A stretch of 64,000 nt of DNA from assembly GCA_007376445.1 (NCBI GenBank), contig VMGF01000002.1, positions 13,673 to 77,672 on the forward strand, read 5' to 3'. The DNA comes from Parcubacteria group bacterium Gr01-1014_3 (GTDB lineage Bacteria > Patescibacteriota > Minisyncoccia > UBA6257 > WO2-44-18). The notes below the pieces were generated by a model. The model was not told the origin of the DNA and ran no database searches. It saw only the letters and a program-made list of their open reading frames with translations. Positions 9,983 through 13,521 of the stretch are shown piece after piece. Positions within the stretch are counted from its first letter, which is position 1. Each line of letters begins with the position of its first letter. The translations under genes were made by a program, and so were the position numbers.

Positions 9983-10867
9983 ATGACAAAGTTTAATTTG
10001 CAAAGCTTCGCTTTTGCCGCGGTCGTTTTATTTGCGGTTTTAGTTAATTTTTCCGGACGGGAAAATACCAAAGAGACAATATCCGCGGCCGAAATTTCCG
10101 ACACCAATCTCACCGCCAATATCGCGGTGATTTCTGATATCGATCCCACGCCGCCAATTTTCAAGGTTTTACCGAATGTTAAGGCGGTTACGGCTTACGC
10201 CAAGGAACTCTTTGGATCGCAGGTATTTTTTGAAAAGAATATTCATCAGCAATGGCCGGTTGCTTCACTGACTAAATTGATGACCGCCGCGGTTGCGCTG
10301 GAAAAGATCGGAATCAATCAAGAAGTTGTGGCGAGTGAAAATGCCGTCGCCACCGAAGGTATCGCTGGCGGCTTGCTGGTAGGAAGATCGTACCCGGTCC
10401 GCGAGCTTATAAATGTATTGATGGGTGTTTCCAGTAATGACGCCGCGGTCGCGCTGGCCGAATCTTATGGCGTTAAGCGTTTCGTGGCCACGATGAATTC
10501 TAGGGCGGGGAATATCGGAATGCTGGACACGGTTTTCGCCGATCCAACCGGACTCACTTCTTTGAACCAGTCCAATGTTTTGGATCTGGAAAAATTAGTG
10601 AAGCACGTCTTTAATAATTATCCGGAAATTCTAACTGCCAGCCGCCAGCCCGATGTAAAAATCGCTGGGCAAGTGTTTAAAAACATCAACGCCTTCGCGG
10701 GCCGACCGGATTTTCTCGGCGGTAAAACTGGATTTATAGATGAGGCGAGTGGTAATCTTATTTCATTGTTCAATGTTGGTGGTCAGCCTGTTTTAATAAT
10801 CGTTCTTGGGAGCGACGACCGCTTCGGCGACACGCGAAAAATCTATGATCACATTACAGGCAGTTAG
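9983..10867 (+). CDS. D-alanyl-D-alanine carboxypeptidase (peptidase S11)
   Basis: SLTK (SxxK), SSN (SxN), KTG motifs. Confidence 0.9.
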   Translation: MTKFNLQSFAFAAVVLFAVLVNFSGRENTKETISAAEISDTNLTANIAVISDIDPTPPIFKVLPNVKAVTAYAKELFGSQVFFEKNIHQQWPVASLTKLMTAAVALEKIGINQEVVASENAVATEGIAGGLLVGRSYPVRELINVLMGVSSNDAAVALAESYGVKRFVATMNSRAGNIGMLDTVFADPTGLTSLNQSNVLDLEKLVKHVFNNYPEILTASRQPDVKIAGQVFKNINAFAGRPDFLGGKTGFIDEASGNLISLFNVGGQPVLIIVLGSDDRFGDTRKIYDHITGS

Positions 10868-11891
10868 AATTATCGGACTTTCCATGGCCGCTTTTCTGGT
10901 GGCTTTCGCGGCTACGCCGTTAGTCAGTAAATTACTGACGCGATTTAACGCGAACAAACAGCTCCGTTCCAGCGAACAGGCGCCGATCTTTGCTAAGTTG
11001 CATCAAAAGAAATCTGGCACACCGACGATGGGCGGCGTGATCATCTGGGGCACCGTGCTGGGCCTGGCTTTATTGTTCATGCTGTTGGATTTCTTTTTTG
11101 ATGGATTTTGGAGTTATTTGAATTTCGTGGATCGCGCGCAGACCTATCTGCCGATCACGGCAATGTTAGTCGCGGCTCTGATCGGACTCGCGGATGATAT
11201 TCTGGGCGTGTTAAAGATCGGTCCAAATGGCGGCGGTCTGAGGATCAGCCAGAAGCTGGTGGTTTATATGGTTATCGCTCTTGTCGGCGCGCTTTGGTTT
11301 TATTATCGGCTAGGCTGGGATACGCTTTCCGTGCCATTTATCGGCAATATCACGATCGGTTGGTGGTACATTCCGTTATTTATTTTCATAATCGTGGCTA
11401 GCGCTTTTTCCTCCAATGAAACTGATGGCCTGGATGGTTTGGCGGGTGGAGTTTTGCTTTTTGCTTTCGCGGCGCTGGTGGTAGTGGCTTTCGCGATTGG
11501 CCGGTATCACTTAGCCGCTTTCGGCGGCATGACCATCGGCGCGCTACTGGCCTTTCTCTGGTTCAATATCTATCCGGCCAGATTTTTCATGGGGGACACT
11601 GGCTCAATGTCCCTGGGCATTACCATGGGCGTGATCGCTATGCTGACCAATACGACCTTACTCTTGCCGTTATTCGCGCCGATCTTAGTTTTAGAATCCC
11701 TCTCGGTAATTATTCAGATCGCCAGTAAAAAATTGCGTAAAGGCAAAAAAGTATTTTTATCCGCCCCTATCCACCATCATTTTGAGGCGATTGGCTGGCC
11801 GGAGACGCAGATCACGATGCGCTTTTGGATTATCTCCGTGGTCTTCAGCGCTCTTGGCTTGACCATTTTCTTCTTGACGAAATATCTATAG
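10845..11891 (+). CDS. mraY: phospho-N-acetylmuramoyl-pentapeptide transferase
   Basis: KSGTPTMGG, NETDGLDGL, FMGDTGS, APIHHHFE. Confidence 0.97.
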   Translation: MITLQAVRIIGLSMAAFLVAFAATPLVSKLLTRFNANKQLRSSEQAPIFAKLHQKKSGTPTMGGVIIWGTVLGLALLFMLLDFFFDGFWSYLNFVDRAQTYLPITAMLVAALIGLADDILGVLKIGPNGGGLRISQKLVVYMVIALVGALWFYYRLGWDTLSVPFIGNITIGWWYIPLFIFIIVASAFSSNETDGLDGLAGGVLLFAFAALVVVAFAIGRYHLAAFGGMTIGALLAFLWFNIYPARFFMGDTGSMSLGITMGVIAMLTNTTLLLPLFAPILVLESLSVIIQIASKKLRKGKKVFLSAPIHHHFEAIGWPETQITMRFWIISVVFSALGLTIFFLTKYL

Positions 11892-11936: not shown

Positions 11937-13070
11937 ATGCGTACTAGGTTTTTGATTTTCGCGACGCTGATGACTTTTAGTTTGATTGGAAGTAATTCCT
12001 TTGTTATCGCCCAGGAGAAGAAACAGGAAGAGCCGTCGAAGAGCGGTAAAGAAATTGCCGAGATGTTTGAAGACGCGGTGGTTCAGATCGAGACGACTGC
12101 CAAGTGGGATAATGGCATGGAGACTGGCGGATCCGGCAGTGGATTCTTTATTGATGACAAGGGGCATATTTTGACCTGCGCTCACGTGGTCAAGGAAATG
12201 GATGAGGTTATGAAAAATCCGTTTAACGGCCAGAGCGCTAAGGTATTGAGCTACTCTTACTGGGTCATCCTGCCGGAAAAACAAAAAAAGATTCGCGCTG
12301 AAGTCGTTGGTTGGAATAAGCATGTCGATATCGCGCTGATGAAGGCTAAGATCGACGCGCGTGATTATAAATACGCGAAGCTCGGTGATCCGAACAAACT
12401 CAAGAGGGGTGATAAGGTTTACGCGATCGGCAGTCCTTATGATCTCCAGAATACTCTTACCGCGGGATCCGTGAGCGGATTGCACCGTTATCTCGATATG
12501 AATTATGTTGAAGATTTCATTCAGACTGACGCGGCTATCAATCCCGGAAACTCCGGCGGCGTCCTGATCAATGATCGGGGCGAGGTGGTCGGGCTTACGG
12601 CGGCCAAGTACATGATGGCTGATAATCTTGGATTCGCGATTTCTATCGAGCTTGCGAATATCGATCGGCTGATGAAAGGCGAAGTAAAACTTGGAGAACT
12701 TGGAGCTGGCGTAATGTTGGATAATTTCCCGCGGACCAGCGGATTTGAAGATTTGCGGCGACTGAATGAAATTACCGATATTGATGATCTGGAATCTTTG
12801 ATGACCCTGGCTCGTTTGACGAAAGACAACTGCTCGCTGGTTACCAAGGTTGATAGAGAATCTCCGGCCGCTAAGGCGGATCTCCAGCGAGGTGACCTGA
12901 TAAATTCCGTTAACGGCAAAGTTGTGAAGAATGGACGTGAAATCCGGATTCATTTACTGGCCACGGAAATCGGAAAAGAAGTCGCGGTTAAGATCACCCG
13001 CCTAGAGAAGGGCGTGGCAAAGGAGCTGACCGTTACGGTCACGCTGGCTGAACCTAAGAAGGACAAGTAA
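11937..13070 (+). CDS. HtrA/DegP-like serine protease with PDZ domain
   Basis: GSGF, TCAHVV, DIAL, QTDAAINPGNSGG; signal peptide; GGAG SD. Confidence 0.93.
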   Translation: MRTRFLIFATLMTFSLIGSNSFVIAQEKKQEEPSKSGKEIAEMFEDAVVQIETTAKWDNGMETGGSGSGFFIDDKGHILTCAHVVKEMDEVMKNPFNGQSAKVLSYSYWVILPEKQKKIRAEVVGWNKHVDIALMKAKIDARDYKYAKLGDPNKLKRGDKVYAIGSPYDLQNTLTAGSVSGLHRYLDMNYVEDFIQTDAAINPGNSGGVLINDRGEVVGLTAAKYMMADNLGFAISIELANIDRLMKGEVKLGELGAGVMLDNFPRTSGFEDLRRLNEITDIDDLESLMTLARLTKDNCSLVTKVDRESPAAKADLQRGDLINSVNGKVVKNGREIRIHLLATEIGKEVAVKITRLEKGVAKELTVTVTLAEPKKDK

Positions 13071-13343
13071 ATGTGGAGATGGCTACCATGCTCAAGCGTA
13101 GATGGAATTCTGCCAAGAATGCCTTTACTAGATTGGTCGTGGTCAGTTCGCGCTTTTCTTTCTCACTTTGCGTTGGGTTTTGGTGTGGGGTTATCGCTCT
13201 GTGCGTTGATCTGGATCATATTACGATGCTGTGGGGCCACCCCCATGGAAGAGTGGCGCATACGCCGCTCTTTGTTCTGGCTTGCCTTGTCTGTATCTAT
13301 TATGGTGCACGTCTTGGAAGACTACTTGTTGGGTTGGTTTTGA
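13071..13343 (+). CDS. small membrane protein, frame A of an overlapping pair (SHxxxG and HxxED motifs)
   Basis: ATG directly after the htrA stop; two hydrophobic helices; SHFALGF and VHVLEDY. Confidence 0.55.
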   Translation: MWRWLPCSSVDGILPRMPLLDWSWSVRAFLSHFALGFGVGLSLCALIWIILRCCGATPMEEWRIRRSLFWLALSVSIMVHVLEDYLLGWF

Positions 13344-13378
13344 GAAAAATACGCAAAAATAATCAAGGACCGTCTTAA
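13073..13378 (+). CDS. small membrane protein, frame B of an overlapping pair (DLDH and GRxxHT motifs)
   Basis: GGAG at 13075-13078 lies 9 nt before ATG 13088; hydrophobic helices; VDLDH and HGRVAHTP; stop lies within a downstream hairpin. Confidence 0.55.
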   Translation: MEMATMLKRRWNSAKNAFTRLVVVSSRFSFSLCVGFWCGVIALCVDLDHITMLWGHPHGRVAHTPLFVLACLVCIYYGARLGRLLVGLVLRKIRKNNQGPS

Positions 13379-13413
13379 TTGATGGTCCTTTTACTTTATA
13401 CGCTCGTATACTC

Positions 13414-13521
13414 TAATTTTAAATTCTAAATTTTTAATTTTAATTCAATGACCAAATGTTAAATTTCAAAATTAAATCATTGAAAATTAATTTAAAATTT
13501 ATAATTCAAAATTTAAAATTA
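13414..13521. repeat. AT-rich heptamer repeat, copy 2
   Basis: Near-identical to 128-236. Confidence 0.85.

Follow-up and report, generated by a model that had tools for sequence, protein, structure and literature searches.

Can two halves of one membrane domain be written over each other in DNA, each in its own reading frame, and still form a single metal site? This question is raised by positions 13071 to 13378 of the window, which is the whole 64,000-nucleotide stretch analysed (Parcubacteria group bacterium Gr01-1014_3, contig VMGF01000002.1, positions 13,673 to 77,672). Two open reading frames (ORFs), A and B, lie here on the same strand and share 271 nucleotides (nt), as the first-pass annotation of this DNA had described. 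Comparison with related loci leaves hardly any doubt that both frames are coding. A and B are likely to pair in the membrane as one four-helix, YdjM-like metal site, and this composite site would probably act as a hydrolase. The two ORFs are the following:

ORF A, 13071-13343, + strand: helical hairpin of 90 amino acids (aa) forming helices 1 and 4; His at 13164 and HVLED at 13308; predicted N-out/C-out.
ORF B, from GTG 13073 or ATG 13088 to 13378, + strand: 101 or 96 aa, in frame +2 relative to A, forming helices 2 and 3.
ORF B motifs, DxDH at 13208 and R-x-x-H at 13250-13261, + strand: flanked by basic N- and C-terminal tails; predicted N-in/C-in.

The motif codons stand at 13164 (His of SHFALG, A), 13208 (DLDH, B), 13259 (His of RVAH, B) and 13308 (HVLED, A). 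The annotation had assigned motifs 1 and 4 of YdjM to A and motifs 2 and 3 to B, collinear along the DNA; this division holds, except that the first His of the proposed HGRVAHT motif is not conserved. Run X1, perhaps the source sample, contains a contig that equals 12900-13443 with zero differences or gaps, and a contig from a second study spans 13129-13347 with 26 substitutions and no gap. These gap-free matches, which answer the earlier call to look for indels, indicate that the locus is not an assembly error.

Each frame retrieves its own homologues among predicted proteins. Queries with A and B both matched in 12 of the 20 other genomes of the family; in 11 of them the stretches of DNA that match A and B overlap, while in the twelfth, G019, a single ORF contains the two matches. 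Scans with the A alignment by itself brought in remoter loci at identities as low as about 40%, among them one on a Nealsonbacteria contig and others within sugar-modification clusters. The comparison set thus assembled contains 23 distinct dual-type loci, 11 of which were fetched by frame A alone. Loci L062, L065, L066, L068 and L070 were translated and found to repeat loci already counted, while L063, L064, L069, L072 and L080-L088 were taken as repeats on account of the same identity and contig size, without separate translation. Related loci are non-independent samples, a reservation that applies to all conservation statistics and tells against the reading given above.

Both frames are open over at least 222 nt, and both motif sets are kept, in 23/23 loci at a mean core DNA identity of 63% (range 43-92%), which bears out the earlier argument against simple decay. 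The third frame is interrupted by stops in 22 of the 23. Motifs 1 and 2 are separated by 44 nt in 20 loci and by 53-56 in 3, motifs 3 and 4 by 49 nt in 22 loci and by 61 in one, and all changes of length between motifs are multiples of three. Synonymous recoding was used as a null (5000 trials per locus, 23 loci). When A was recoded, B stayed open with D-x-D-H and the His in 0.02-2.6% of trials; when B was recoded, A stayed open with H..HxxED in 0.02% at most. These nulls reject either frame as a chance by-product of the other. The leave-one-out z score for an overlapping frame was 6.9-10.1 in five dual loci, against -0.5 to 1.2 in six single-chain genes serving as a natural negative control. 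In B, the residues D, D, H, R and H are invariant. Furthermore, 78 proteins came back from a profile search against 1.84 billion representatives, and 37 of them are, by reading, stand-alone B-type; 32 of these 37 bear the residue pattern left in frame B by overlapping HVLED codons, suggesting an overlap at their loci as well.

What the two halves form together is indicated by their single-chain relatives. All motifs are carried by 41 aligned single-chain proteins of 121-237 aa, in which H, D, D, H, H and D are invariant. The A profile matches this family at 99.4%, covering its first and last helix and leaving a gap for B, and the B profile matches it at 99.2%, on the two middle helices; the order in the single chain is A-start, B, A-end. 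AlphaFold2 predicts four helices for the single-chain protein P0034 (predicted local distance difference test, pLDDT, 92.5; predicted template modelling score, pTM, 0.86) and two long helices for A alone (pLDDT 75). From the profile placement and these folds, helix 1 shares its bases with helix 2, and helix 4 with helix 3, in the dual locus. A contiguous ORF with all four motifs had been named in advance as a sign of a frameshifted copy or an assembly error. Such ORFs do exist, but many intact dual-frame loci are found beside them, and the single chains serve instead as the template for fitting the halves together. One single-chain gene (L031, G096:C38, at about 880-930) has its last motif, HPIEDY, in another frame through a frameshift or an assembly error; P0040 is an intact close relative.

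The orientation of membrane proteins is governed by the positive-inside rule. Charges were counted over the 23 loci as lysine plus arginine against aspartate plus glutamate. In A they amount to 24/35 at the N-terminus, 82/34 in the loop and 3/46 at the C-terminus; in B, to 104/33, 26/59 and 118/32, respectively, with 74/22 in the tail past the stop of A. The basic loop and acidic ends of A and the basic ends and acidic loop of B therefore point to two separately inserted hairpins of opposite orientation. This predicted opposite topology is what a four-helix chain requires, and it would place all ligands at the outer face.

The mechanism proposed is as follows. Ribosomes would start in either frame from one ribosome-binding site, so that both peptides are made from the same message. 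A would insert N-out/C-out and B N-in/C-in. This would bring together, at the outer face, the His of helix 1 and the HxxED of A with the DxDH and RxxH of B, as ligands of two or three metal ions. The first-pass annotation had offered two peptides with a composite metal site as one of two alternatives, and it is this one that conserved frames, single-chain homology and charge bias favour.

The start of both peptides could depend on the following signals, of which AAGGA, GGAG with ATG 13088, and the ATG of A coupled to the htrA stop are present as the annotation had listed them:

Shine-Dalgarno-like AAGGA, 13059-13063, + strand: inside the last codons of an htrA-like gene; aligned spacing 13/15 in the metric of PMC9841429.
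ATGTG double start, 13071-13075, + strand: ATG of A and GTG of B, 2 nt apart.
GGAG (13075-13078) and ATG 13088, 13075-13090, + strand: another possible start for B, the ATG being preceded by GGAG at a distance of 9 nt; this ATG is also found in L061.

An NTGTG site (ATGTG, GTGTG or TTGTG), at which the starts of A and B are 2 nt apart, occurs in 16 of the 21 loci with a readable 5' end; the remaining five have separate starts, 5-19 nt apart. A TGN second codon is found in only 3 of 383 long ORFs of the source genome. Ten of the 16 NTGTG sites stand at an aligned spacing of 12/14 to 14/16, as measured with the E. coli anti-Shine-Dalgarno sequence, which may not be that of the host. In E. coli, according to Kohl et al. 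(PMC9841429), AUGUG yields both frames at a spacing of 12/14, and GUGUG does so at 12/14 to 14/16. The likeness lies in two starts 2 nt apart giving both frames under one Shine-Dalgarno sequence. The E. coli sites, as that text describes them, give short alternative-frame peptides of no known role and are mostly resolved to one frame (PMC9841429), whereas here the start site is kept in 16/21 loci and both products are conserved proteins. The locus thereby offers a testable natural use for AUGUG/GUGUG dual initiation. In L012 (G018:C6), at about 1270-1500, two copies of the 5' portion of the dual locus flank a stretch of N, which is probably an artefact of scaffolding; GAGGT followed by ATGTG is found in the first copy.

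Neither A nor B matched a Pfam family, and NCBIfam gave scattered weak matches only. For the single chains, Pfam YdjM (PF04307) is the commonest weak match (12 of 41 at E up to 1, best 7.6e-4). Against a reference of 18 YdjM proteins from the same phylum, the single-chain profile scored a probability of 73.5% in hhalign (E 3e-5) with the four motifs in register. The elements H..G, DxD, R..H and HxxxD follow one another on four helices; they are invariant in the 41 single chains and split between A and B in the dual loci. The neighbours found by a language model belong to YdjM and DUF6122 clusters, at scores below 0.9 that serve as leads only. No solved YdjM relative was found by sequence or fold in PDB, where the best hits (Z 7.6) were generic bundles, and BFVD gave no significant structural match. 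As judged by profile comparison, the link to YdjM is real but distant: the unit would work like a minimal YdjM yet fails as a member. Common to the two is a membrane unit of four helices, on which His, DxD, RxxH and HxxxD keep their order and register. They differ in that DxDH stands here in place of PDxD, the His before Arg and the C-terminal extension are missing, and the unit is split over overlapping frames; this family ends soon after HxxED. Among the sequences read, the Pro of PDxD is found only in L076, L077, P0039, P0041 and P0067 (PDH).

The substrate may be a lipid-linked phosphate or phosphodiester at the outer face, a tentative guess drawn from the role predicted for YdjM and from the envelope-gene neighbourhood. 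YdjM is described as a metal-dependent hydrolase, possibly a phospholipase, by prediction only (PMC11442139). Replacement of undecaprenyl-pyrophosphate phosphatase was considered and found unsupported: BacA is present in 0 of 21 family genomes, and a PAP2 phosphatase in 20 of 21.

Several results weigh against the picture drawn so far. The single chains stay under the Pfam gathering cut-off for YdjM (29 bits), and against the YdjM profile A alone scores 1.6% and B alone 36%. The Pro of PDxD, the His of HR and a C-terminal G..(W)P segment, all invariant or nearly so in YdjM, are mostly absent here. A separate, ordinary YdjM gene above the Pfam cut-off lies elsewhere in the source genome (808 kb; G000:C2:279470-279844, L119) and is its sole match in the profile search. 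The PAP2 phosphatase occurs with or without the locus, the source genome included, and searches with the A and B queries did not find the locus in 8 of the 20 other family genomes. Given the ordinary YdjM, the PAP2 enzyme and these eight genomes, the locus is not obviously essential, and no missing function points to it. As regards initiation, a Shine-Dalgarno match in range is missing from 3 of the 16 NTGTG loci, and in 3 others the spacing is outside 12/14 to 14/16. AUGUG at 13/15, the spacing of the window, favours the AUG frame in E. coli (PMC9841429), and B in the window may rely on ATG 13088. GGAG or GAGG precedes the first ATG in only 46 of 383 long ORFs of the source genome. No 3' end of 16S, from which the anti-Shine-Dalgarno sequence of the host could be read, was found in the assembly.

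The explanation that competes best keeps the heterodimer and disputes its chemistry: the pair could be a metal-binding, sensing or transport unit rather than a hydrolase. This is rather unlikely, and its odds overlap with those of the hydrolase, the architecture being shared. Hydrolysis by YdjM itself is only a prediction (PMC11442139). The unit is truncated relative to YdjM, the PDB comparisons contain no similar solved structure, and small zinc-ribbon-like ORFs lie downstream in several loci. On the other hand, the set of H, DxD, RxxH and HxxxD aligns with that of YdjM, and an invariant Arg beside a His/Asp cluster generally suits phosphate binding.

It is improbable that both peptides are made and act separately or as homo-oligomers, without a shared site, one for instance regulating the other. 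CxxC motifs in the B tails of several loci hint at extra roles; however, each peptide has only half of the ligands that are invariant in the single chains, and these relatives join exactly those halves in the order A-B-A.

Still less probable is the second alternative of the annotation, a double programmed frameshift from A to B and back to A that would give one short chain with four motifs. The motifs are indeed collinear along the DNA in the order 1-2-3-4, and the slippery run reported there (GGGTTTTGG) was found at 13175-13183, but GGGTTTT recurs at that place in just 7/23 loci, the window among them. In the A-B-A chimera, motifs 1 and 2 would be 15-19 residues apart and motifs 3 and 4 16-20; the corresponding distances are 37-92 and 32-78 in the 41 single chains and 32-51 and 31-47 in the 18 YdjM proteins, so that one helix would stand where two are needed. 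The segments that such a chimera would skip are open in 23/23, 22/22 and 23/23 loci, against 6.6, 14.3 and 15.7 expected, and B has its own conserved start as well as a basic tail outside the overlap.

That only one frame is a gene, the other being a shadow, a decayed copy or an assembly error, is barely credible. Gene callers usually record one frame per contig, and T-rich membrane genes often have hydrophobic alternative frames, yet 23/23 open pairs at 43-92% DNA identity, the recoding nulls and the contig matches contradict it, and the leave-one-out scores show no shadow signal in single-chain genes. Equally hard to credit is a full-length single chain made by reading the same RNA twice, through backward ribosome jumps or RNA-level duplication: the order A-start, B, A-end needs the same bases twice, which G019 has as DNA, but two starts and two stops are conserved that such a mechanism would not need, and to our knowledge it has no precedent.

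Two peptides pairing as one site would have parallels among small membrane proteins. EbrAB and YdgE/F, of the SMR family, are pairs of small membrane proteins with opposite charge bias that form one unit. They resemble A and B in these respects; they differ in being paralogues from separate adjacent genes, whereas A and B are halves without homology to each other, encoded in overlapping frames. Long overlaps of genes on one strand are held to be a rarity in cellular genomes. In phage lambda, the Rz/Rz1 genes illustrate that embedded genes can encode interacting partners (PMC6139136): one gene is embedded on the same strand in another frame of its partner, and the products form a complex. The same text notes that gene callers miss embedded genes and proposes that duplication and deletion alter the architecture. 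Here, too, both frames are conserved as coding on one strand, with mutual binding suggested by the single-chain homologues. Rz and Rz1 are described there as unrelated proteins, each located in a different membrane; unimolecular spanins form, in that description, a type apart that has families of its own (PMC6139136). Unlike them, A and B contribute helices 1 and 4 and helices 2 and 3 of one domain, have homologous single chains, overlap almost completely and are chromosomal. Searches of open-access papers found no report of a single domain split over overlapping frames and having single-chain homologues. Here one domain, and probably one active site, is divided over two frames; single chains exist as natural controls, and the transition from dual to single has been traced at least once. 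The case also exposes a blind spot of gene callers, by which one half is recorded as a hypothetical protein.

The direction of that transition rests on segment homology together with the tree. In G019, the ORF is pieced together from three overlapping stretches that match dual-frame DNA from the same genus at 59-71% identity: about -90 to +80 (frame A), -100 to +150 (frame B) and +70 to +177 (frame A). One dual-coded segment is homologous both to the N-terminus and to the long linker of this ORF; that calls for a duplication and means that this clade went from dual to single. Seven further proteins share the G019 build. The G019-type proteins retain, in register, residues dictated by the other frame in dual loci (mean scores of +8.6 to +9.7 in three of four segments; about -12 once the register is shifted). 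In the remaining 33 single chains, all four segments have a weaker peak in register, and no peak is seen in YdjM; this weaker peak is suggestive and could reflect shared structure. The synonymous sites of single-chain genes gave no detectable trace of a residual second frame, and G019 was no exception (combined z 1.2).

The tree is unrooted and comprises 59 rows and 98 columns, from which P0083, P0043, P0025, P0014 and P0060 were dropped; the preceding tree had weak support and some mis-anchored rows. The label dual or single changes six times in it, at least three of the changes being forced by well-supported branches, and a single clade of all dual loci is rejected (approximately unbiased test, p-AU 0.002). 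Two frame-shifting tandem duplications would unroll the overlap through working intermediates, and the overlap itself could have arisen from a YdjM-like gene through two deletions that shift the frame. The locus is a model for the origin of overlapping genes and for their undoing by duplication. The broader picture somewhat favoured is that of a widespread family, overlooked so far, whose single membrane metalloenzyme domain is doubled back on itself in the DNA, both frames being started from a staggered NTGTG and the products assembling with opposite topology; the dual state would be ancestral for this subfamily, and single chains would have arisen from it repeatedly by local duplications. 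In P0047, P0075, P0080, P0086 and P0096, the front of B is joined to the last helix of A without helix 1; known at the protein level only, these may be frameshifted variants, assembly errors or evolutionary intermediates.

The distribution of the locus is patchy among the genomes searched. Besides the source genome, it was found in 17 of 400 genomes of the order (two families), in 1 of 400 of the class sample and in 1 of 400 of the phylum sample; it was found in 0 of 120 relatives of G798 and had no match in viral contigs or in 50,697 phage records. Homologous contigs that carry names belong to Parcubacteria or Patescibacteria. The surroundings in the window are as follows:

mraY, 10806-11891, + strand: upstream context.
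htrA-like protease gene (Trypsin_2 and PDZ), 11937-13070, + strand: its TAA directly abuts the ATG of A.
Terminator-like hairpin followed by a T run, 13365-13390, + strand: found by consensus scan; encloses the stop of B, 35 nt beyond the stop of A.

Comparable hairpins (-12 to -17 kcal/mol) surround the stop of B in seven further loci. The dual locus directly follows mraY, in a region of cell-wall genes, in 10 of the 12 family genomes that have the locus, and also in G019. An htrA gene stands between the two only in the source genome and G003 (and in contig L061); in L003 the stop of the htrA-like gene lies 1 nt before the ATG of B. The distant dual loci L075, L076 and L077 lie amid glycosyltransferase-like, epimerase and nucleotide-sugar (dehydrogenase) genes, named by eye from sequence. 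There B comes first, at or next to the stop of the upstream gene, and A begins 7 nt later; two of the three retain the YdjM-type PDxDH. Small CxxC-rich, zinc-ribbon-like ORFs are located downstream of B in L005, L006, L010, L011, L012 and L067, and CxxC occurs in the tail of B itself in L005, L010, L011, L012, L067 and P0051. Beyond the hairpin of the window, at 13414-13521, lies an AT-rich imperfect palindrome of about 110 bp that matches both strands and has 72 matches at some 35-40 places in the source genome. With its very high contig depth in metagenomes, it looks like a dispersed repeat of the type of miniature inverted-repeat transposable elements (MITE) or repetitive extragenic palindromes (REP).
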